Below, piece by piece: positions 2,146 to 29,379 of a DNA stretch of 55,401 nucleotides; position 1 is the first letter of the stretch; every line of letters starts with the position of its first letter. Below the pieces are notes generated by a model, which was not told where the DNA came from, ran no database searches, and saw nothing but the letters and a program-made list of their open reading frames with translations. A program made the position numbers and the translations under genes. The stretch is from positions 1 to 55,401 of IMG/VR virus record IMGVR_UViG_3300009503_000039. One strand, written 5' to 3'. The DNA is from a virus (Duplodnaviria > Caudoviricetes).

Positions 2146-2331
2146 ATGAATAGTTGTGGTCATTCATCACATGTAGAACGTTTATTAGAAACCGAAGCAT
2201 ATGTGCTTTTACAATGTTCAGATTGTAAAAATATTTTTAGGAAAAAACTTGATAAAGAAAGTAAGAAAGAAAAATATCTAAATGGAAAAAGTTTAGATAT
2301 AATTACTAAATTGAAGAGGAAAATAAAATGA
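2146..2331 (+). CDS. Small putative Zn-binding protein
   Basis: CGH...CSDC; stop overlaps the next start (ATGA). Confidence 0.55.
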   Translation: MNSCGHSSHVERLLETEAYVLLQCSDCKNIFRKKLDKESKKEKYLNGKSLDIITKLKRKIK

Positions 2332-2648
2332 GTAGTAAAAAATTTTATTTTGATTATTTTGATGATTGTATTGATAAAAAAAATAAAATAGATTTGAAAA
2401 AAGCTAGAGAAAAGGTATTTGATGAATATAAATATCAACTACTTTCTAATAGTATTTTTAATAAAACTTCATTTAGTGAATTTTTAGACTCTATGATGAA
2501 GATGGTTCAAAGTATTAAATTAGTTGTTGATGAGTTGTATTTTAAAGCAGAATTATCAGATACAGAATATTCAAAGCATGTAATGAAACTTGAAAAAGGG
2601 ATAGAAATATTGAATCATTTAATTTGTCAAGAAAGAATGTTGAATTAA
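2328..2648 (+). CDS. Hypothetical protein
   Basis: 106 aa, coupled to its neighbours. Confidence 0.6.
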   Translation: MSSKKFYFDYFDDCIDKKNKIDLKKAREKVFDEYKYQLLSNSIFNKTSFSEFLDSMMKMVQSIKLVVDELYFKAELSDTEYSKHVMKLEKGIEILNHLICQERMLN

Positions 2649-5647
2649 TATTTTTTACTAAGGATGATTTAATGATAATTACCCAAGAGATGTTAAATTT
2701 TCTTAGGAAAAAATATCCGGATTATATACTGCTAGATTTTAGCAGTATTTTTGTCGGTGAACATATACAGATTAATGATGCAGTTGAACCATCTACACAT
2801 AAATTAGTCAATGAGGAAGGAGTATTAAAAATAATTGCTAATGGTGAGGAATTCGCTAGTCTCGATTTGAAAAAATATATACCCCAAAAAATAGGAGATA
2901 AATATAAAAATATTGAATATAAAGCTATTATTAGAAGTGAGAAATATTCCCCATTATTTTTAGATGCTAAAGGTAGGATTTCAGAAAAAGGAAATTATAT
3001 ATATTCTAAACCTTCAGAAATAATAAATGCAAATGTTTGGAAAGATAAAAATCCGTTACAGGAACTATTAGGTATGGTTGCAGATAGTGGAAAAAAAGTT
3101 ATAATAATAGCAAATGATTATGTAAGACTATGTCCAGACAGAATTTCTATTCCTTTTAAACAAATACAACAAGAAATGAAAATGAGTAAAGAATCGTTTT
3201 TAATTTTTGCCGATCTTGAATCCCGTATGAAATCAATGATTCAGCAATATACCGCTCGAATTCCTAGCAGTACTCCCGAAGAGGCAGATATTGAGGCAAG
3301 AGCAAGAGAAAAGTTACGAGAAAAACAAAGAAAAAAAGAATCATTTTTAAGACAAGCAAGTTTAGATTTACATAATATAGTAAAAAGATATCATAGATTT
3401 TCAGACTGTTTTGAGAAATTAGCGGAAATTATTGGGGCGGAAGCTTTGAATTCTATAGCTATTGTTAATTCATGTGATTTTGAACAGCTCAAAGATTATT
3501 GTTTTCCAATTTTTATAGTTGATGATAAATATTGGCCTTTCGGAGTTTATAGTGCAAAATATAATGCTAATCCCGACTTTATTCTTTTTAAAGCATCAGA
3601 TTTTACAGAGGAGAAAAAAATAATACCTGGAATTCTTCATGAACTTTCGCATATGAAATATGAGAATAAATTTGGTAGAAAAGTTATAGAAGAAGAATGC
3701 AGAAAATATGATTATATTAAGAGGCCGCATGAACGGATTGCCTATCAGGTACAGATTTCTGAAATGATAAAGCAAGAATCCGGTAATATAGATGCTGTGA
3801 AGGAAAGATGGTATAAGGCATTTTTTCCGGATGAGACAATGATTAAAGAAATGTATATTTTAACAGAAGATGTTGTAAAGAAAGCCAGAAAGTCTTGGGA
3901 ATTGTATAAAGAATGTATAAGGGCAAAATTAAAGCAAGGCAGTAATGAGATAGGCGCTGAAAGAGCATGTAGGCACTTAAAACCTGAATTTGATGATAAG
4001 ATAGCAGAAGTAATGTTTAAGTGCGGATTCTTAAGTTTAGGGGATATGGAACAAATTAAGGAATTGTATCGTTCTCAATTAACTGGGCACGTAGATGAAG
4101 ATTTAGCTAAGTCAGTAAAATATATAATAATTGATTATGCTGAAAGATTAATAAAGGATAAAGAAGAAATGGCTGCATCTGAACCAAAAGAGATTCAGGA
4201 AGAATATAAACATATTAATAGATTTAAGTTCCTTGATAAATTTTGGAATGATTTCAAAAATAAATTATTGAAATTAAAGTTTGCTAAAAGCCCAGAAGAA
4301 ATATTATTAAGAGTAGATGAATTGATAAGTACCGCGCATAATACTGGACAAATATTAGATTGGGAGATTATAGAGGCAGAATCAAAAGGAAAACCTGTAA
4401 AATATTTAAAAAAATTAGAAGATTCTATTGCGGATATTTATGAATTAGCAGAGCAATTAAAGAATGCTAATTTTAATTCTTTTAATATTGTAAAACAAAG
4501 TGAGGTAAAATTTAGGGATGATTGGAAATCTGTGTATTCAGAATATGATGTTGTAGGACGTTCGTATTGGTCAAAAAAAGATCTTATAGAATTGATTAAG
4601 AAATATTTGATTTCCGCTGATGGGGATGCTTATAAAACTTCAGAATTAAAAGATTTATCCACTATTCAACTAAGAAAGATGTTTTTTAAATACGCTCCTC
4701 AGGAATTTGGGAAACTACCCCATGAGATACAAAATAGAATAGCAATTAAAGAATTAATTAAGAATAAAAAATATGCTGTAAAAATAAAAGAAAAAACTTT
4801 AGGTATTTACGATAATCTTAATTTTGCAGAAAAAGCTAAACAATTTTGGATGAAACAATTTACAGAAGATGACAAATTAAATGCTTTACCGGTTTCGGAA
4901 TATTCAGTAAGAGCCAAAGTGTCTAAAATATTACCTACAGGATTTATGATGGATGTAGATGGTAAGTTGTTTTATGTTGATAAAAATGTATCTTTAGATG
5001 TAAAATATTTATTGGATAAAACTGGGTTGTATAGTATGTTTAAAACATCTCAGTATCTGGATAATTTGGTAGATGTTTTGGAAGCGATTGATGATAAAGT
5101 GGTTAAAATAAATTCAATTAGGGAGTTTGATAGAGTTCTGGGAACTGAGTTTGAAAGATTATTATTAGAAATACAAAAAATAGATAAGTATAGTGCAAAT
5201 TACCAATATGATTTTTATAAGATGACACAAACTCAGTTAGAAGAATTTATAAAAGAAACTCAGAAGAAATTGAATAGAGTTTATGATTGGAAGATTAAGC
5301 AAGAACTGGAACGAAATTTAGATAAAGCAATGCAAGTTTATAAAAGTAAATATATAAAAGAGTATGCTCAAGTTAAAATTGCAGCAGATATTGAAACATC
5401 TTTATCAGATTTAAGAGATTTATTGGCTCAAGGATATGATACAGTTGAATGGATTCAAAGTTTATATCCTTGTAATAAATGTCGAGAACTTAATGGTGAA
5501 ATTTTTGATTTAGCAGATTTTATTAAAGAAACTAAATATAATGCTCCTCTTTTCACAAAATCACATCCAGGATGTAGATGTAAGGTAAAAGTTATGGGCA
5601 ATGGTTTAAAGGATGTTTTTGTAAATTATAATGGAATAATTTTATAG
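2624..5647 (+). CDS. Multidomain head-associated protein: HEXXH zincin-like domain plus C-terminal MuF/SPP1 gp7-like domain (likely start ATG 2672)
   Basis: ILHELSH...PHERIAY; C-terminal VEW..CNKCRELNGEIF...P...SHPGCRC. Confidence 0.65.
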   Translation: MSRKNVELIFFTKDDLMIITQEMLNFLRKKYPDYILLDFSSIFVGEHIQINDAVEPSTHKLVNEEGVLKIIANGEEFASLDLKKYIPQKIGDKYKNIEYKAIIRSEKYSPLFLDAKGRISEKGNYIYSKPSEIINANVWKDKNPLQELLGMVADSGKKVIIIANDYVRLCPDRISIPFKQIQQEMKMSKESFLIFADLESRMKSMIQQYTARIPSSTPEEADIEARAREKLREKQRKKESFLRQASLDLHNIVKRYHRFSDCFEKLAEIIGAEALNSIAIVNSCDFEQLKDYCFPIFIVDDKYWPFGVYSAKYNANPDFILFKASDFTEEKKIIPGILHELSHMKYENKFGRKVIEEECRKYDYIKRPHERIAYQVQISEMIKQESGNIDAVKERWYKAFFPDETMIKEMYILTEDVVKKARKSWELYKECIRAKLKQGSNEIGAERACRHLKPEFDDKIAEVMFKCGFLSLGDMEQIKELYRSQLTGHVDEDLAKSVKYIIIDYAERLIKDKEEMAASEPKEIQEEYKHINRFKFLDKFWNDFKNKLLKLKFAKSPEEILLRVDELISTAHNTGQILDWEIIEAESKGKPVKYLKKLEDSIADIYELAEQLKNANFNSFNIVKQSEVKFRDDWKSVYSEYDVVGRSYWSKKDLIELIKKYLISADGDAYKTSELKDLSTIQLRKMFFKYAPQEFGKLPHEIQNRIAIKELIKNKKYAVKIKEKTLGIYDNLNFAEKAKQFWMKQFTEDDKLNALPVSEYSVRAKVSKILPTGFMMDVDGKLFYVDKNVSLDVKYLLDKTGLYSMFKTSQYLDNLVDVLEAIDDKVVKINSIREFDRVLGTEFERLLLEIQKIDKYSANYQYDFYKMTQTQLEEFIKETQKKLNRVYDWKIKQELERNLDKAMQVYKSKYIKEYAQVKIAADIETSLSDLRDLLAQGYDTVEWIQSLYPCNKCRELNGEIFDLADFIKETKYNAPLFTKSHPGCRCKVKVMGNGLKDVFVNYNGIIL

Positions 5648-22446: not shown

Positions 22447-25400
22447 ATGTTTATAAAATATGGTACTTTAGAAATTATTGATTCATCTGGGGACTTAGAA
22501 GAGATTGTAGATATAAATGGTATTGGTCATATTGTTGAGGAAAAGAAAGGACCATGGCTTTATTGCCGTGCAAGAGCTTTGACTTGTGATAAGCCAAATG
22601 GAAATAGAGATATATTTCCTAAAGATGAAGTAAAGAAAGCTTATCAATCATTTATAGGTAGAGGTGTTTATCTTAATCACAATAGCGGAAAAGTAGAGAA
22701 TGCGATAGGAAAAATTATAGATGCTTATTTTGTTGATACAGATCCAAATGATGTTCATGTAGAGTGTTTATTTAAGATTAATAAGGAAATGTTTCCTGAT
22801 ATTTGTAAGAGGATTCAGAATGGATTAATGTCAGCGGTAAGCATGGGGTGTATTATTCAAAGGTCGGAGTGTGTTTTACCTACGACTAATGTTTATACAC
22901 TTGATGGATGGAAACAAATAAAAGATATTAGAGTAGGTGAACAAGTATTAACTCATACCGGAAAGTTTAGAAGAGTATTAGCAACTAGTAGGAGGAGTGC
23001 TCCGGAAAAACTAATAAGGATTAGATATAAAATAGCTAATGATGATAAACATATTGGAACGTTAATTTTAACTGATAATCATCCAGTATTAACTGAAAGA
23101 GGATGGATTAAAGCTATTGATTTAGAATCTACAGACAAAATTTCTATAATGGCAAAAAATGGTTATGAATTTAAATTTGTTGATTTAGTTGGTATAGAAG
23201 TATTAGATAATATTCATCCAAATAGAGATAGAGTTAGTGGTGCTTCAGCGTTTACTGTTGTATGTAATTTACAAGTTGAGAAAGATGAATCATATATTGC
23301 TGAGGGAGTTGTAGTTCATAATTGTCAAATCTGCGGAAATATTGCAAGAAATCCTAGTGAATATTGTGAACATCTTGCAAGGTATAGAGGGCAGAAATTC
23401 AATGTTAAAAGGGATGAAAATGGTAAGTATATAGAAGCGGTATTAGATCCAAACGGGCAGGAAGAGGCCAACGAGATCAGCCATGATATTACTTATACTG
23501 AGTTATCGATTGTAGATGCTCCCGCTGATCCTACAGCAGAGATTAAAACGATATGGGCAAGTATAGATGAGAAATTCAGGAAAATGGCAATGTTATTAAC
23601 AGATGAGATCAATAAAAAGATAGATAGTAAGTTTGATGAGTTAGTGAAAACGATGAGTAGTAATAATAGTTTAGATTCTAAGGAGGTTAAAAATATGGTT
23701 GAAGCTAAGAAAAAAGATGAACCAGATATTGGTGTACAAGTAACACCAGAAGCGAAAGAAAAACCAACATTCAAAACAGACGATAAAGATATACCAGCAG
23801 ATATTAGTGTACAGGTAACGCCAGAGGCAAAAGAAAAGCCTAAAGTTGAGAAAACAGATGAGGATGTAATTGGAGTTCAAGAGGAAACGAAAACAGCAGA
23901 AGCGAAAGATGTAGATTTAGATTTAGGTAGAGGAGTAGGTGGTTCCGGAAGAAGAGGTAATCCTAAAACCGATGAAGAAAGAGCAGAAACTCATGGAGTA
24001 TCAGTAGAAGATTTACCTCCAAGAGGAACTGGATTAGGAAAAGGAAAAGGAATTAAAGATGAAGATAAGGAATCTAAAACAGTAGAAGAAAAAGAATCTG
24101 AAACTGAAGTAAATGAAATTTTAAAAGATGTTAGAAAAAAAATAGAGAAAGTATTTGAAGAGGCTTTAAAGAAAACAAAGTCAATGGTGATCTATAAGAT
24201 ATTTAAGAGTGCGGTTCGTTCAAATATTCTTGAACTAAATGAAGAATTAGAAGAAAATGAGGTAGAAGAAATAGTAAATAAAGTAGAAGAAACTGCGGTG
24301 GCAGAAGCTACTGAAGATGCGATGCAAGAATTGAATGTTAAAATTGCCGCTGATGTTGAAGAAGAAAAACCTAAAATAGATGTTCGTTTAGATATTAAAA
24401 GGGATAATTTAGAAGATGAATATATAGTTAGTGAAGATGGTAAAGACGTTATGTCAAGTACTGTAAAAGATGTATTTGGAAAATCAGCTATTCAAAACAT
24501 AGCTTATGCTATAAGTCCAGAATACTTACAGTTATTAAAAACAGCTGCTCAAGAATATGGTAAAGATGCGATTTTAGCAATTTGGGCTGCATCAGAAGAT
24601 AGTGATGCACTGAGCAAAGCAAAAAAATATTTTACTAAGGCATATCCTGACAAAAAATATGTAATTGAATGGATTAAGAAACACAAAGAAAAAGTACAGA
24701 AACCAAGTAATGTGAAGCTTGAGATGACTAAAGTAGCTGATGTTACATCTTCTAATGTAGAAGGACAAACATTACCTTTAGAACAATCTGAAGTTTCTTC
24801 AGAACCAGTAGAAGAATTTACAACACAGCAAATTGAGGAATTTGAAAATGTGACTCATAATTTAATAGAAGGTTTAAGTGATGAGGAATTAGATATAGCT
24901 ACAGATTTTATAGCTGAAGAACTTTCAACAGAAACTAAGCGATATAAACCTGAAGGGCTTGTAAAATTAGCTTCTGTATGTCCTTCTTGTTTTAAAAATA
25001 TGTTAGAAGCCGCTAAAGAGGCAGCTAGAAAAGGTAGAACAATGTCAGAAGCAGCAAAGAAAGGATTATGGAAGAAATTCAAAGGTTCAAAAAAGAAATG
25101 TATAGAATCAATGGAAGGTAAAGTAAGTAATCCAGCAGCATATTGTAGATGGCTGGAAGGTGAAGTAACAGGGGAATATGGTCCTACTCGAACAAAGCCG
25201 GGGAAAAAGAAAGTATGTGAACAAGAAGGAGAAATCAAAGAAGCAGCTTCAAATGAAAAGGGAACATCATATGTAAAAGCAGAACGACCCGGGGAATTCT
25301 TACCAGATGTAGATCTTAGTAAAGAAACTAAACGAGTTCTTTCTGGTGATAAAGGAGAATTAAAAGGAAATAAGTTTGTAGAACCAGAGGGTGGTTCAAA

Positions 25401-25941
25401 ACCTGAGCCTCAATCTATGGAAAAAGCAAAAGGCTCAGATTTACAGGGTGTTGATTATATAGAACCAGAGGGTGGAACAAAAATACAAAGTTCTATTGAA
25501 TCAGACGAATCAAAGAGATTAAAAGAAGAAAATGAGATGTTAAAAAATCAATTAGCTGCGGAACAGGCTAAAAGAGTTTTAGAAAATAAAGTTGCTCGTT
25601 GTAAAGACATTGCTACAAAGATGGCATATAAAGGATTGATAGTTCCTGATGATGCTGAAGTAAAAGATATCCTATTAAAAAGAGCAACGGAAAAAATCAG
25701 TGTTATTGATGCAAATAAAGAATCTTTCAAAAACCAGATTGAGAGACAAATATCAGATTTGATGGCTATGGACGATCATACTTTAGATGCATTTGAAAAA
25801 ACAATCGATAGAATACCTGATAAAAAGACACAAAAGATAGCTATTCTTCAAGATGGAGCAAAACAGCGGCCAGAAGATAATGAATTTTATATTCCGTTTA
25901 CAGTGAATAAGGAAGCATTGAAAAGGTTTGGAGGTAAATAA
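22447..25941 (+). CDS. Prohead maturation protease fused to a scaffold region, intein-containing
   Basis: PNGNRDIF, LNHN, IGKIIDA, SAVSMGC, ELSIVDAPADPTA; long acidic coiled-coil C-terminus; located before the capsid genes. Confidence 0.88.
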   Translation: MFIKYGTLEIIDSSGDLEEIVDINGIGHIVEEKKGPWLYCRARALTCDKPNGNRDIFPKDEVKKAYQSFIGRGVYLNHNSGKVENAIGKIIDAYFVDTDPNDVHVECLFKINKEMFPDICKRIQNGLMSAVSMGCIIQRSECVLPTTNVYTLDGWKQIKDIRVGEQVLTHTGKFRRVLATSRRSAPEKLIRIRYKIANDDKHIGTLILTDNHPVLTERGWIKAIDLESTDKISIMAKNGYEFKFVDLVGIEVLDNIHPNRDRVSGASAFTVVCNLQVEKDESYIAEGVVVHNCQICGNIARNPSEYCEHLARYRGQKFNVKRDENGKYIEAVLDPNGQEEANEISHDITYTELSIVDAPADPTAEIKTIWASIDEKFRKMAMLLTDEINKKIDSKFDELVKTMSSNNSLDSKEVKNMVEAKKKDEPDIGVQVTPEAKEKPTFKTDDKDIPADISVQVTPEAKEKPKVEKTDEDVIGVQEETKTAEAKDVDLDLGRGVGGSGRRGNPKTDEERAETHGVSVEDLPPRGTGLGKGKGIKDEDKESKTVEEKESETEVNEILKDVRKKIEKVFEEALKKTKSMVIYKIFKSAVRSNILELNEELEENEVEEIVNKVEETAVAEATEDAMQELNVKIAADVEEEKPKIDVRLDIKRDNLEDEYIVSEDGKDVMSSTVKDVFGKSAIQNIAYAISPEYLQLLKTAAQEYGKDAILAIWAASEDSDALSKAKKYFTKAYPDKKYVIEWIKKHKEKVQKPSNVKLEMTKVADVTSSNVEGQTLPLEQSEVSSEPVEEFTTQQIEEFENVTHNLIEGLSDEELDIATDFIAEELSTETKRYKPEGLVKLASVCPSCFKNMLEAAKEAARKGRTMSEAAKKGLWKKFKGSKKKCIESMEGKVSNPAAYCRWLEGEVTGEYGPTRTKPGKKKVCEQEGEIKEAASNEKGTSYVKAERPGEFLPDVDLSKETKRVLSGDKGELKGNKFVEPEGGSKPEPQSMEKAKGSDLQGVDYIEPEGGTKIQSSIESDESKRLKEENEMLKNQLAAEQAKRVLENKVARCKDIATKMAYKGLIVPDDAEVKDILLKRATEKISVIDANKESFKNQIERQISDLMAMDDHTLDAFEKTIDRIPDKKTQKIAILQDGAKQRPEDNEFYIPFTVNKEALKRFGGK
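22870..23322 (+). mobile_element. Mini-intein (151 aa, no endonuclease domain)
   Basis: Block A CVLPTTNV, block B LTDNHPVL, blocks F/G VCNLQVEKDESYIAEGVVVHN followed by +1 Cys. Confidence 0.93.
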
Positions 25942-26122
25942 AGTTAGAAAACTTGATGTTTAATCAAGTAAAGTAATACTATATGTTAATAGTTAAAAAT
26001 CTAAGAAAGATGTATAGTTCTTAGAGAACAGTTAAAGTATAAGTAAAAGGAAAGCTTAGTAGCTTTCAGATGTAGAAAGTAAGATTTTACTATTAAACAT
26101 AGACTTAAATAGGGAGTAGAAA

Positions 26123-26566
26123 ATGGCTCTCAAAGTTGTTAAGGAAGTTAATAGGTTACAAGGCTTGAAAGTTGCTCCTGGATTGACAATTTGTGCAGGT
26201 CAAGTTGCTAAACTGTTATCTACCGATACTGCTGGGGAAACCGCAACAGTAGGTAACACAGGTCCATATATAGGGCTATTTATGGACACTAATATCTCAA
26301 CAGGACTTGGACTGAATCAGCGTGATGAAACATCAGGTTCTGGTCTGGTTTCTGTTATGACAAATGGTGGTTATGTTTTAGTCTGGAATGATGGACGCGG
26401 TTCTCCTTATGTTACTACAGATACGTATACAATCGGCGCTGCATTGTATAGTGACGAAAACGGTAGAATAACTACATCAGGTTCAGGTACTACCAACTTG
26501 GTTGGATATTGCACAAAAGTCCCAGCAAGTGCAACAGATAGTCTTGGAATTAAACTCGTAGTTTAG
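26123..26566 (+). CDS. Capsid decoration/cement protein
   Basis: 147 aa, G/T-rich; DETSGSGLVSV, Y.IGAALYSDENGRIT; immediately upstream of the major capsid gene. Confidence 0.75.
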   Translation: MALKVVKEVNRLQGLKVAPGLTICAGQVAKLLSTDTAGETATVGNTGPYIGLFMDTNISTGLGLNQRDETSGSGLVSVMTNGGYVLVWNDGRGSPYVTTDTYTIGAALYSDENGRITTSGSGTTNLVGYCTKVPASATDSLGIKLVV

Positions 26567-26638
26567 CGAGAAAATAGTAATTAGTAATAAAAAGATCTAA
26601 AATATGATCGAAAAATAATTGTTCTTTGAAAGAAAAAC

Positions 26639-28443
26639 ATGGAGACTCAAATTGATCCTAGAGTACTAGATCAAAAGCTCGAAGCTTTAATGAGTACTCC
26701 AGGTGGATGGAACAAGATCGCTCAGCAGATAAATTGAAAAATTGTGTCTGAGATTATGGTGACATAATCATGGAATGTGACTATATCAGTCAAAGTCCTA
26801 CGAGATAGCATCAAGAGGATCAGACTGAGGAAAGATTAGAAACTAATTATAGTTTCAGTATCCCCAGAGACTATACGTCACACATCTCGGTAATGAGATG
26901 AAGATATAGTCCGGTCTGCATAGTAATATGCAGAGTTAAGCAGAAATGACTTAACTTCTAGAAATTTTTAAAAATTTCTAGAATAACAAAAACGGCAATC
27001 TCCCATCAAATATGACTTGCTTTATGAAGGGAGAGCTCGTCAGATTTTCAGAGTTCACACCCTTGCACAGGGAGAACCTGCAATCTTTGATCGAGATATT
27101 CGTGTTCCATCATATAAGCTTTCCAAAAGAGGTCTGCCTCCAGAACTTTATATCGAATCTGACAGGATAGAGGTAAATACATTCGAAATTGCAACTGTTC
27201 CTAAGATTCGTTATGAGGAACTGGTTTACAGGCGATTTGACGTATTGAACAGGGCTTTAGCATAGCTTGGGCCCTCTCGTCAGCAATGACGATGTACAAA
27301 ACTTTACTATATGCAAAGACGTCCTTATTTTAATAAGGATAATTTGCAGGAAAGATTATTTTATGAAGATACAATGTAAAGAAGAAGAAAATTGGTTAAT
27401 ATCAGAATATAAGAAAGTCGGTTATGATTACTTAATTATTTAGGTAAGAGGTATAAAGCATAGTAAAAGATAAGATTTTAAACTTCATAAAATAAAATCC
27501 TCAGAGACTATACGTAAAGCTCCTATATTGTTATATAGGATGAAGACATAGTCCGAACTATAGGTATATATAAAGCTATAGAGTTAAGCAGAAATGACTT
27601 AACTATTTATAATATAACTTATTATAAATATAACACTATCGCAAGAACGTGCTAAATCTCAGATAATGGAGATTGAAGATACTGAGATGCTTAGGATTCT
27701 TGATGTCGCTTCAACTGCGGTAAATAGTGCAGTTGTAGAATCAAGTTCTGATGGAAAGCTTACACTTGACTCATTAGGTCTAGCTTTTGCAGCAATTGAA
27801 TCTAGACGTTTGGTTCCAGTTACAATACTTATGCATCCTTTTCATTTGAGAGATCTTAGAACATTTAACATTCAGTCAACTGGGTCTAAAGTGTTCGATG
27901 AGATCACTCTCTATGAAGTATTGAAAACTGGAAAAGTAGGAACAATTTGGAATGCTCAGGTTTTGACCAGTCCACTAGTTAATCCTGCAAAGATATATGT
28001 CTTAAATTAAAACGCTAGGACATGTAAAATCTGACTATATCGGTGGAACTCCTACGAGATAACATCAAGAGGACAATACCGAGGAAAGATTAGAAACTAA
28101 TTATAGTTTCAATATCCGTAGAGACTATACGTCAGACATCTCAGTAATGAGATGAAGATATAGTCCGATCTGCATAGTAATATGCAGAGTTAGACAGAAA
28201 TGGTCTAACACGTCTTTAAAATAGACGATTAACAAAAATGGTGCTGCTCCTGAATTTGTGGGAGTTATGCCTATAAGGATAGACGTAACAGTGAAACCAT
28301 TCGACAATGTCGAGAAACTTTATGTTACTTTCAGCTGCTTTGAGAATGTTGGATTTTGCGTAGTTTTTTCTCATGGCATTGTTCAGATTGCTTTCACAGG
28401 TACTCCTTCTGGTGGATGGCCTAGCTACGGTCCAACTGGTTAA
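26639..28443 (+). CDS. Major capsid protein, join(26639..26730,26995..27256,27642..28002,28241..28443), 305 aa
   Basis: Exons of 92+262+361+203 nt total 918 nt, in frame; junctions KIAQQ-M-QSPIKYDL, VLNRA-QERAKSQI, KIYV-C-AAPEFVGVMP; position after protease and decoration genes. Confidence 0.9.
26731..26994 (+). ncRNA. Group I intron 1 (264 nt)
   Basis: Exon ends in U, intron in G; P1 CAGAU/GUCUG; P10 AUUGU/GCAAU; CAGAGACTA and GAAGATATAGTCC core; P3 GTGAC/GTCAC. Confidence 0.92.
27257..27641 (+). ncRNA. Group I intron 2 (385 nt)
   Basis: P1 AGGGCU/GGCCCU; P10 CUUG/CAAG; CAGAGACTA and GAAGACATAGTCC; P3 CTTTAC/GTAAAG; terminal G. Confidence 0.92.
28003..28240 (+). ncRNA. Group I intron 3 (238 nt)
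   Basis: P1 AUAUGUCU/GGACAUGU; TAGAGACTA and GAAGATATAGTCC; P3 CTGAC/GTCAG; ends AACAAAAATG, like intron 1 (AACAAAAACG). Shifting both sites by 1 nt also keeps the frame. Confidence 0.9.
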
Positions 28444-28593
28444 ATTCAGCATTCTGATTGTTTCATTGGTTTAAAAGCTAGAACATAAGAGGGAGAGTGG
28501 CCAGAGGACACTCTCCCAATACGTGTAATCCAACGTTAAGGTTAATGCAGATAAGAAGAATGTCTGCAAGTAAACCTTAAATCGGAGGTTTAA

Positions 28594-29379
28594 ATGAAGA
28601 AATATTTTTCAAATGTTCAGGGAGTTTTGACGATTGCGGATTTGATATTTACAGATCCAGTTACCAGAGAGCAAAGAATATTATTATTAAAACCTGGAGA
28701 ATCTATTCCAAATACTGTTCCGACTGAGGAAATAGAACGTTCAGCAAAAAGCGGAGTTTTAAAAGTTTTATTAGAAAAAGGAATGATAGTAGAAAAAGAA
28801 GTTCAAGAAACACCTACTATTCAATCTAAAGAAGAAACTCCAGAGGCAATAATTTCTTCAGGCGGAACTTTAACAGCAACAGAAATTCCAAAACAAGAAA
28901 AAGTGGTATTGCAAGGTGAAAAAGTTATAGAAGGATCAGATGTTCAAATTAAATATGGGTATTTAAGCCCTTCTTCTAAAGAGGGAAAGAAAATTGCAGA
29001 AAAAATAGAAGAGATAGAAAAACAGAGAATTAAAAGTGAACCTGAAGTTGAAACAGAAGAAAATGAAGCTTCTGAAGCTGAACCTACGGCAGAAGCAACA
29101 GGATATTTAACTCCTGATAGTGAAAGAAAGAAGTCAAAAGAAGATGAATTTGATTCTATATTAGGTTTAAAGAGTGAAAAAAAAGAATCTAAAGTAAAGG
29201 AAGAAAAAACAATATCGCTCGAGGAATTTAGAACATTGAAGTTATTTCCTCAATATAGCGTAATAGCTCATTGTAATAATGTAGACTTTTTGAAACAGAT
29301 AGCGGATGATGAAAGTTTACGAGAAGAAATTCGAAAAAGAGCAAGAAATAGAATAAAGAGAATTAGTAATGTCGAATAA
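28594..29379 (+). CDS. Acidic hypothetical protein downstream of the capsid gene
   Basis: GGAGG RBS; C-terminal ~50 aa paralogous to ORF 30668. Confidence 0.75.
   Translation: MKKYFSNVQGVLTIADLIFTDPVTREQRILLLKPGESIPNTVPTEEIERSAKSGVLKVLLEKGMIVEKEVQETPTIQSKEETPEAIISSGGTLTATEIPKQEKVVLQGEKVIEGSDVQIKYGYLSPSSKEGKKIAEKIEEIEKQRIKSEPEVETEENEASEAEPTAEATGYLTPDSERKKSKEDEFDSILGLKSEKKESKVKEEKTISLEEFRTLKLFPQYSVIAHCNNVDFLKQIADDESLREEIRKRARNRIKRISNVE

Follow-up and report, generated by a model that had tools for sequence, protein, structure and literature searches.

Three predicted group I introns in the phage G gp27-like major capsid gene of an uncultured hot-spring-metagenome phage

The interrupted gene and its joined product

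The window analysed here is the whole 55,401-nt stretch of the IMG/VR record IMGVR_UViG_3300009503_000039, in which the predicted capsid gene spans positions 26639-28443 (1805 nt). The gene is divided into four exons and lies directly downstream of a gene for a head decoration protein. The features are listed below; L006 and L009 are two related viral contigs used for comparison.

26123..26566, plus strand: head decoration/cement protein gene, directly 5' of the capsid gene (Pfam Phage_cement_2)
26639..26730, plus strand: exon 1, 92 nt, with the ATG start, ending in phase 2 after U26730
26731..26994, plus strand: predicted group I intron 1, 264 nt, without ORF (RF00028, 73.9 bits)
26995..27256, plus strand: exon 2, 262 nt, with a phrog_2522 match, colinear with L006 and gp27
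27257..27641, plus strand: predicted group I intron 2, 385 nt, without intact ORF (RF00028, 34.2 bits)
27393..27486, plus strand: decayed homing-endonuclease gene remnant in the P6a loop of intron 2 (tblastn and blastn against L009)
27642..28002, plus strand: exon 3, 361 nt, ending in phase 1 after U28002, with phrog_2522 and 6wkk_A matches
28003..28240, plus strand: predicted group I intron 3, 238 nt, without ORF (RF00028, 85.3 bits)
28241..28443, plus strand: exon 4, 203 nt including the TAA stop, with a phrog_2522 match

Joining the four exons produced a 918-nt frame encoding 305 aa with a single terminal stop, and the introns make up 887 of the 1805 nt (264 + 385 + 238). Both figures of the preliminary description were reproduced, as were all its coordinates and counts. 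Its statement that standard gene calling misses the capsid gene also held, as the public protein collection contains just the 114-aa exon-3 ORF (P0001) of this contig. Since gene callers see only this fragment, MCP-based classification and completeness estimates would fail for the lineage unless the introns are modelled. A promoter and terminator scan of positions 25900-28700 yielded fewer promoter-like sites than shuffled sequences and no terminator 3' of the gene. That the exon pieces represent separate small capsid proteins was considered and rejected: exons 2 and 4 are without a 5' start, and the pieces abut exactly on the phrog_2522 profile.

This profile, phrog_2522 'major head protein', was matched in colinear order: exon 2 covers profile positions 67-153, exon 3 positions 154-265 and exon 4 positions 267-315. 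The E-values were 6.3e-11 for exon 2 and 1.5e-15 for exon 3, and the profile positions continue from exon to exon, from 153 to 154 and then from 265 to 267 over the split codon. The joined protein aligned to gp27 of Bacillus phage G with 40% identity over 273 aa (E 2e-68) and no gap at the junctions; of exon 1, residues 18-30 align to gp27 and residues 8-30 to the L006 ortholog. Exon 3 alone matched PDB 6wkk_A, 'Gp27 major capsid protein', along gp27 residues 118-229 (E 1.1e-14) and showed 38% identity to phage G by tblastn, and the L006 ortholog matched the same chain with an E-value of 3.8e-53. Against L006 the joined protein gave one tblastn segment in one frame, covering residues 8-305 to the last residue (67.45% identity, E 2.7e-144), and against LR745208 one segment covering residues 3-291. 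An AF2 model of the intron-less L006 ortholog, which is 67% identical to but distinct from the joined protein, reached a pLDDT of 78 and a pTM of 0.73, and its top Foldseek matches were HK97 capsid chains (E 2.6e-12, probability 1.00); the HK97 fold is thus predicted on the model of this ortholog.

Searches with isolated exons were less informative. Pfam assigned no family to the four single exon peptides; a word-index protein search with exon 3 gave 394 candidates, none with E <= 0.001, and overlooked even phage G; and none of 44 pattern matches of exon 3 alone in viral contigs was confirmed. In the gene directly upstream, Phage_cement_2 was matched with 25 bits against a cut-off of 24. The order of decoration gene and capsid gene is common to L006 and phage G, where gp26, annotated as capsid decoration, is followed by gp27. 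A protease-scaffold gene is also located upstream, as in phage G and L006, and the neighbouring structural genes are intact. Altogether, the phrog_2522 matches, the 40% identity to gp27 and the HK97-fold model of the 67%-identical ortholog support the earlier assignment as a major capsid gene, predicted to be of the HK97-fold, phage G gp27-like type, and the joined protein is capsid-like by its gp27 and phrog_2522 matches.

Group I features and history of the introns

Searches with the Rfam group I intron covariance model RF00028 (gathering score 50 bits) matched all three introns. The matches at 26721-26933 in intron 1 (73.9 bits) and 27952-28187 in intron 3 (85.3 bits) exceeded the gathering score, which was thus reached by two of the three introns, and the match at 27248-27574 in intron 2 stayed below it with 34.2 bits (E 1.7e-6). 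Eight candidates were scored in the 55-kb contig, whose completeness is put at 37% by CheckV; the three that matched all lie in the capsid gene, and outside it none had E <= 0.001.

The preliminary description had ascribed to each intron a U.G 5' splice site, a guide sequence matched to its own exons, a P7 core and a terminal G, and each of these elements was recovered, the guide match to the downstream exon being weak in intron 3. All three introns are preceded by T and end with G. The predicted P1 of intron 1 pairs exon positions 26726-26730 with 26746-26750 (5 bp), that of intron 2 pairs 27251-27256 with 27270-27275 (6 bp) and that of intron 3 pairs 27998-28002 with 28018-28022 (5 bp), each with a terminal U.G. 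P10 is formed in intron 1 by 26741-26745 and exon positions 26995-26999 (5 bp), directly abutting P1, and in intron 2 by 27266-27269 and 27642-27645 (4 bp), likewise abutting P1; in intron 3, where 28013-28015 pairs with 28241-28243, it comprises just 3 bp with a 2-nt offset. The P7 strands GACUAUA and UAUAGUC are present in all three introns, with one mismatch in intron 2. The centroid fold of intron 2 includes P2, P4-P5, a long P6a, P8, P9, P9.1 and P9.2 (z = -3.5).

Covariation was analysed in an alignment of four sequences, namely introns 1 and 3 and two introns of L009. It comprised 51 pairs in 10 helices, with 99.5% of the cells paired and double changes in 20 of the 51 pairs. None of 500 shuffles matched the observed covariation, and slid controls were 32-40% paired, a comparison that is flattered by the derivation of the structure from the same four sequences. 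P7 is invariant in this alignment and therefore uninformative there. RNAalifold likewise indicated that helices of introns 1 and 3 covary with related introns. By blastn, the P7-P3'-P8-P7' core shares 81-84% identity, along roughly 55-60 nt, with introns of T4 nrdD, AR9/PBS1 and crAss-like phages, and no insert between P7 and P3' was seen in the intron sequences. Because of the Rfam E-values and the covariation, chance can be excluded as an origin of these features, which support the interpretation of the three interruptions as group I introns.

Among five homologous MCP loci compared at the DNA level, three are intron-free (phage G, LR745208 and L006), the window has three introns and L009 has at least four. 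The L006 capsid gene contains no intron, and RF00028 had no match in the 10.3 kb of that contig. Two of the L009 introns carry ORFs of 267 aa and 238 aa, for which DUF7487 scored above and DUF559 just below the cut-off. One insertion site, that of intron 2, is shared by the window and L009, where it is occupied by the endonuclease-bearing intron Ib, and the two introns are connected by colinear DNA matches. At this site the exon reads AGGGCU and the guide GGCCCU in the window, as compared to AGAACU and GGUUCU in L009, and the P10 pairing CAAG/CUUG is kept in both.

The P6a element of intron 2 holds an AU-rich remnant of about 130 nt. By tblastn, aa 231-254 of the 267-aa L009 ORF correspond to 27393-27464, with 14 of 24 residues identical and an internal stop codon; the E-value is 2e-5 when the gene region is searched and 5e-4 for the whole window. 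Next comes a 7/8 match in another frame, and the blastn pieces are colinear with the 3' end of this ORF. The claim that the introns are ORF-less consequently stands insofar as none of them contains an intact ORF, and needs qualification for intron 2, in which this state is secondary, a decayed 3' endonuclease remnant being left. Neither strand of the introns contains an ORF of 61 aa or more, and a 58-aa ORF in intron 2 had no Pfam match. Searching the whole window with the two L009 endonuclease ORFs by tblastn detected nothing beyond the intron 2 remnant, and no free-standing endonuclease was found among 10 small upstream ORFs (of 57 listed ORFs of at least 90 aa). The best explanation is that intron 2 derives from a mobile intron with an endonuclease gene and has lost about 700 nt of the endonuclease gene, which would place it at a late, degenerating stage of the homing cycle. 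New here are the second relative, L009, whose capsid gene has at least four introns, including an endonuclease-bearing one at the middle site, and the decayed remnant of that endonuclease gene in the middle intron of the window.

Introns 1 and 3 are identical in 206 of 268 aligned columns and are best explained as paralogs that arose by spread inside the gene. Around insertion site 1, the DNA is poorly conserved relative to L006 (53% in 30 nt, 9th percentile); not all insertion sites, as judged from this comparison, resemble conserved homing targets. Across the window and L009, introns occupy six different sites, as opposed to none in L006. Moreover, in both intron-bearing genomes an ORF-less intron has its nearest relative within the same gene: this holds for introns 1 and 3 in the window, and in L009 for Id, which lacks an endonuclease gene and is closest to the endonuclease-bearing Ic. 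It is a tentative and rather doubtful proposal that, in this phage G-like lineage from hot springs, the capsid gene acts as a hot spot for group I intron multiplication within one gene. The pattern would fit ectopic spread without an endonuclease of the intron's own, either by reverse splicing, with a mutated guide fitting new sites, or through endonucleases acting in trans. A use of capsid-gene introns as weapons or markers in the competition of co-infecting phages would likewise be consistent with this pattern.

The three relatives provide a compact natural series of invasion, fixation and endonuclease decay in a gene that needs very high expression, ranging from no intron in L006 through three ORF-less introns with one endonuclease fossil in the window to at least four introns with two intact endonuclease genes in L009, and including co-variation of exon and guide sequence at the shared site.

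Splicing and rival explanations

We consider it highly probable (about 0.9) that the locus is a phage G gp27-like HK97 capsid gene of an uncultured phage from a hot-spring metagenome, interrupted by three group I introns. As far as sequence comparison can tell, ribozyme structure with covariation, the exact junctions given by colinearity with three uninterrupted homologs, and capsid identity are established. Ligation of the exons is deduced from their colinearity with intron-less homologs; that splicing actually occurs and is autocatalytic is inferred. The gene would be transcribed into one pre-mRNA of about 1.8 kb, in which each intron would fold as a P1-P10 ribozyme. The guide sequence would pair with the end of the upstream exon, with U.G at the cleavage site, and with the start of the downstream exon, and two guanosine-initiated transesterifications would release the intron and join the exons, yielding the 918-nt frame and a 305-aa capsid protein. 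When unspliced, all three introns present an in-frame stop 7-9 nt inside the intron, the frame of exon 1 ending 7 nt into intron 1. A ribosome running on into an unspliced intron would thus meet a stop 7-9 nt past the 5' splice site, and an excerpt of a review ties in-frame stops early in an intron to ribosome stalling (PMC3984707).

No RNA run was listed with this stretch, and two DNA runs labelled hot springs metagenome were, which are possibly its source. Among the contigs of these two DNA runs, no intron-skipping joint indicative of an intron-less DNA allele was found, and no listed piece spans the whole gene. As a separate observation, the same intron core is abundant in that hot-spring community.

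Splicing in vivo might require a protein helper, such as a host or phage chaperone or a maturase, the RNA structure then being necessary and not sufficient. Folding at high temperature might need help because the introns are AT-rich (28-34% G+C) and the sample is labelled 'hot springs', and the weak P10 of intron 3 points in the same direction. Against this stand the full set of core helices, the high Rfam scores of introns 1 and 3, and the lack of a maturase-like ORF within or next to the gene. Self-splicing in vitro is known for phage introns whose cores are similar (T4 and Twort type), which also counts against a helper, and we regard this requirement as unlikely. Loss of splicing from at least one genuine intron, most likely intron 2, would instead turn the capsid gene into a pseudogene, in a phage lineage that is defective or dying out; the score of 34.2 bits relative to the gathering score of 50, the P7 mismatch and the decayed endonuclease remnant are compatible with such a loss. 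However, none of the four exons contains a premature stop or a frameshift, and they are 67% identical over the full length to an intact ortholog; every helix of intron 2 is preserved in the centroid fold, the guide of this intron perfectly matches its own exons and differs compensatingly from that of the L009 ortholog, and the adjoining structural genes are intact. A decayed gene therefore appears improbable.

The order of the four exons could also be an assembly artefact created through a stretch of about 29 nt common to introns 1 and 3 and exist in no one genome. The Logan contigs of both runs do break exactly in this stretch (26828-26856 and 28082-28110), and, as noted, the gene is covered by several pieces. 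Nevertheless, depth is comparable among the three unitigs (6.6, 5.3 and 7.1 in one run; 9.5, 7.1-8.4 and 5.9 in the other), and each is used once, in the given order only. P3 is complementary in both introns in this order only; a swap would break it, since alignment columns 58/165 are G-C in intron 1 and C-G in intron 3. The given order furthermore results in a protein that is colinear from end to end with three homologs, and a misjoined locus is very hard to reconcile with these data. An intact capsid gene with three introns that are probably spliced autocatalytically remains our preferred reading.

Comparison with known systems

The closest characterised protein is gp27 of Bacillus phage G (PDB 6WKK; NC_023719, 23289-24137), likewise with the decoration gene directly upstream. 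In phage G the capsid gene is one uninterrupted 849-nt CDS, in contrast to the four exons of the window.

According to excerpts of PMC7886860 (Yutin et al. 2021), MCP genes of crAss-like phages of the Delta and Zeta groups carry group I introns, one Zeta MCP being split into five fragments. As in the window, several group I introns per MCP gene occur there and standard annotation is defeated (PMC7886860), and the P7-P8 core of the window introns matches the crAss-like records cr55_1 and cr1_1 with 81.7% identity over 59 nt by blastn. As described in those excerpts, the introns were recognised via encoded endonuclease domains in gut crAss-like podoviruses (PMC7886860). The window introns, in contrast, contain no intact ORF and were identified from their RNA structure; the gene that they interrupt is a phage G-like capsid gene, and the sample is from hot springs.

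Mycobacteriophage LittleE contains a spliced capsid-gene intron, alongside which the excerpted text cites a capsid intron of Tuc2009 (PMC3706429, Pope et al. 2013). LittleE resembles the window in that the most highly expressed structural gene is affected, splicing takes place after U, the intron has a terminal G and an intron-less close relative sets the junction; its single 819-bp intron carries an HNH gene, and RT-PCR together with N-terminal sequencing of the protein proved that this intron is spliced, as the same excerpt states (PMC3706429). The window, unlike LittleE, has three introns and no intact endonuclease gene, and its splicing is deduced. A gene with three group I introns is also known from Staphylococcus phage Twort, in which orf142 reportedly combines this arrangement with exon skipping; to our knowledge orf142 is not a capsid gene.

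Small introns have been described in jumbo gut ('Jug') phages, where, in the excerpted text of PMC12880540, many of them (mean about 206 nt) are located in essential genes, terL is present in 2-3 fragments and metatranscriptome reads verified 37 of the 76 intron predictions. The interrupted genes named in that text are terL, nrdD and DNA polymerase (PMC12880540), as opposed to the MCP in the window. Our literature search, which stopped short of the supplementary Jug and crAss-like tables that perhaps list more MCP introns, retrieved no paper on introns in capsid genes of phage G-like or hot-spring phages.

The preliminary description had called three endonuclease-free introns in this gene unusual, which was overstated given the capsid introns of crAss-like phages, LittleE and Tuc2009 and the small introns in essential genes of Jug phages. 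As capsid-gene group I introns are already known from crAss-like phages, LittleE and Tuc2009, the window represents a further case of a known phenomenon; it reveals no new mechanism and broadens the known range of capsid-gene introns by the phage G-like group and a hot-spring community.

Architecture of the interrupted gene

The listed long ORFs of the 55,401-bp IMG/VR contig (G+C 29.8%, CheckV completeness estimate 37%) are all encoded on the + strand and form a phage-like array. In the 2 kb from the head-decoration gene to the next large ORF, starting at 28594, only short ORFs were called. A preliminary description had placed here a major capsid gene split by three group I introns, and the exon boundaries that it implied are listed together with two upstream head genes.

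Capsid gene exons and upstream head genes of the window
22447-25941, + strand, ORF of the prohead protease/scaffold fusion gene, 1164 aa
26123-26566, + strand, head-decoration gene (Pfam Phage_cement_2)
26639-26730, + strand, capsid exon 1
26995-27256, + strand, capsid exon 2
27642-28002, + strand, capsid exon 3
28241-28443, + strand, capsid exon 4

The Rfam group I intron model RF00028 matched all three introns on the + strand (intron 1, 73.9 bits; intron 2, 34.2 bits; intron 3, 85.3 bits), the middle match (intron 2; E 1.7e-6) falling below the gathering score of 50 bits. The window-wide search gave no further RF00028 match at E <= 0.001 in the rest of the contig. Introns of 264, 385 and 238 nt make up 887 of 1805 nt, and the joined exons (918 nt) encode 305 aa with a single, terminal stop codon. 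The proposed architecture is confirmed. Without splicing, an in-frame stop codon follows 7, 9 and 8 nt past the 5' ends of introns 1, 2 and 3, respectively; PMC3984707 links such early stops to ribosome stalling that gives the ribozyme time to fold.

Each intron is preceded by T and ends in G. The guide of intron 1 (26741-26750) forms a 5-bp P10 with exon 2 and then, contiguously, a 5-bp P1 with the end of exon 1, the U.G pair coming last. The guide of intron 2 (27266-27275) is arranged in the same way, with 4 bp in P10 and 6 bp in P1. Intron 3 forms a 5-bp P1 (27998-28002 with 28018-28022) and a weak P10 of just 3 bp with a two-base offset. Of the splicing signals described earlier, a P1 with U.G and a terminal G were recovered in three of three introns.

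Contigs from both hot-spring runs containing the sequence end within the stretch common to introns 1 and 3. The given exon order is supported by the similar unitig depths, by P3 complementarity in introns 1 and 3, which both have it only in this order, and by the colinearity of the spliced product with three homologs.

Several further features were observed. About 50 nt past the end of the capsid frame is a G+C-rich 9-bp inverted repeat with a 9-nt loop (28491-28517), which was not called in the terminator scan because it lacks a following T-run. A 108-aa ORF at 6688-7014 matches the Pfam family STIV_B116-like, whose name comes from a protein of an archaeal virus, with 37 bits against a cut-off of 26. 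The protease/scaffold fusion has an insert of about 150 aa (22870-23319) that begins with Cys, ends with His-Asn and is followed by Cys, with sub-threshold matches to the Hint-domain families PT-HINT, Hint_2 and Vint. The ortholog in L006, a related viral contig, has 993 aa and runs through this point without the insert, which is most likely a mini-intein; a single intein and three introns would then set the two contigs apart in neighbouring head genes.

Capsid identity and exactness of the junctions

Exons 2, 3 and 4 match positions 67-153, 154-265 and 267-315 of phrog_2522 (major head protein), the exon 4 match beginning one residue past the split codon. Since these ranges run on across the exons, the pieces abut exactly. 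Exon 3 found the major capsid protein gp27 of Bacillus phage G by tblastn and also matched PDB 6wkk_A ('Gp27 major capsid protein'). Along 273 aa, the computationally joined protein and gp27 are 40% identical (E 2e-68) in an alignment that is gap-free at all junctions, and the Met that the split codon of junction 1 restores is aligned with a Met. In L006, the capsid gene (307 aa) is uninterrupted, matches residues 8-305 of the joined protein in one frame (67.45% identity, E 2.7e-144) and is preceded by decoration and protease-scaffold genes as in the window; no RF00028 match was found in its 10.3 kb. The capsid gene of the third and more distant homolog, LR745208, is likewise uninterrupted.

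The L006 ortholog, similar to 6wkk_A (E 3.8e-53), was modelled from a 12-sequence alignment (pLDDT 78, pTM 0.73) and models as an HK97 fold, its best Foldseek matches (E 2.6e-12, probability 1.00) being capsid chains of HK97. On this model, junction 1 falls in the N-terminal arm, junction 2 where the long spine helix (H116-146) begins and junction 3 in the strand immediately ahead of a conserved motif. The capsid assignment of the preliminary description therefore holds. We put at about nine in ten the probability that the locus is a capsid gene whose expression requires splicing at 26730/26995, 27256/27642 and 28002/28241; splicing itself, and its autocatalytic nature, we infer.

Ribozyme structure and history of the introns

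Introns 1 and 3 were aligned with two introns of L009, a related metagenome contig (Ga0210051_1040340, 1-3278, 3.3 kb), over P3, P4, P5, P6/6a, P7 (written as a pseudoknot), P8, P9 and P9.1. In this alignment of only four sequences, from which the structure was also derived and in which P7 is invariant, 99.5% of cells in the 51 pairs were paired and 20 of 51 pairs had double-sided changes, a level reached by 0 of 500 shuffles; sliding the partner by 1-3 columns left 32-40% paired. Intron 2 is longer because an insert sits in P6a, and its centroid fold (z = -3.5) contains P2, P4-P5, a 13-bp P6a, P8, P9, P9.1 and P9.2. Over about 55-60 nt, the P7-P3'-P8-P7' core shares 81-84% identity with introns of T4 nrdD, AR9/PBS1 and crAss-like phages.

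L009 carries the same capsid gene with at least four introns (RF00028 scores 69.6, 51.0, 40.6 and 27.4 bits), the 27.4-bit match being an intron 3' end whose remainder is lost at the contig end.

Introns and intron ORFs of L009 (insertion sites in window residue numbering)
Ia, ends near 113, splits codon E90
Ib, 204-1225, A118|Q119, exactly the site of window intron 2
Ic, 1258-2194, within codon I129
Id, 2463-2675, G218|219
Ib ORF, 337-1140, 267 aa
Ic ORF, 1470-2186, 238 aa

L009 has no intron at window site 3, and the region equivalent to site 1 is missing from the contig; the comparison thus gives six occupied sites across two genomes. The Ib and Ic ORFs, which are related (23% identity to one another, E 7e-17), match DUF7487 over the cut-off and DUF559 (PD-(D/E)XK-type) slightly under the cut-offs, and are probable homing endonucleases of the PD-(D/E)XK type. 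Intron 2 retains 72 nt that match the Ib protein at residues 231-254, with 14 of 24 residues identical and an internal stop codon, and the next 8 residues continue in a different frame. From the colinear blastn pieces, about 700 nt of the ORF have been lost. The label 'ORF-less' stands insofar as none of the three introns has an intact ORF, but for intron 2, which keeps an endonuclease-gene remnant, it describes a secondary state.

At the shared site 2, the exon reads AGGGCU in the window and AGAACU in L009, and the guides read GGCCCU and GGUUCU; these differences compensate each other, which argues for selection on P1 in both lineages. Introns 1 and 3 are more closely related to each other than to any other intron, with 206 identical columns out of 268, and Ic and Id share 86% identity in the 5' core.

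Exon 3 matched 27 library proteins at E <= 0.001; the 13 that were inspected include the window's own 114-aa fragment (P0001), a 106-aa fragment starting at site 2 and stopping at the Id site (P0002) and a 54-aa fragment continuous across site 3 (P0016). Another capsid fragment, P0003 (86 aa, representative library; 68% identity to exon 3), diverges abruptly past an FDEV motif, which may mark a further insertion site in another relative. Comparison of the intron cores (26860-26917, 27478-27554 and 28094-28190) with both runs revealed many other contigs sharing the conserved P7/P7' flanks but with different P8 hairpins (12 run/hairpin combinations, some hairpins common to both runs), at depths up to 108.8 versus 5-9 for the window contig. 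Introns of this family are therefore abundant either in the community or in other parts of the incomplete genome.

Comparison with known phage introns

Phage Twort reportedly has three introns within one gene. In phage G itself, a late gene appears to be interrupted, since the endolysin (gene 23, 2226-3895 of the phage G locus L001) is annotated as two joined pieces; the phage G capsid gene is intact. Group I introns in capsid genes have been published for Delta and Zeta crAss-like phages, with one MCP in five fragments (PMC7886860), and for mycobacteriophage LittleE, where splicing was proven and the Tuc2009 capsid-gene intron is cited (PMC3706429). The present case therefore belongs to an already known kind, and its unusualness had been overstated. 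PMC12880540 and PMC3984707 describe, respectively, short introns in essential genes of jumbo gut phages, which carry a mean of 18.5 of them, and the mobilisation of ORF-less introns by endonucleases acting in trans. Our literature search of main texts found no paper describing the window's lineage. Particular to the window are its phage G-like lineage and hot-spring origin, three introns in one capsid gene, none with an intact ORF, and, together with its relatives, a comparative series of intron gain, endonuclease decay and intragenic paralogy.
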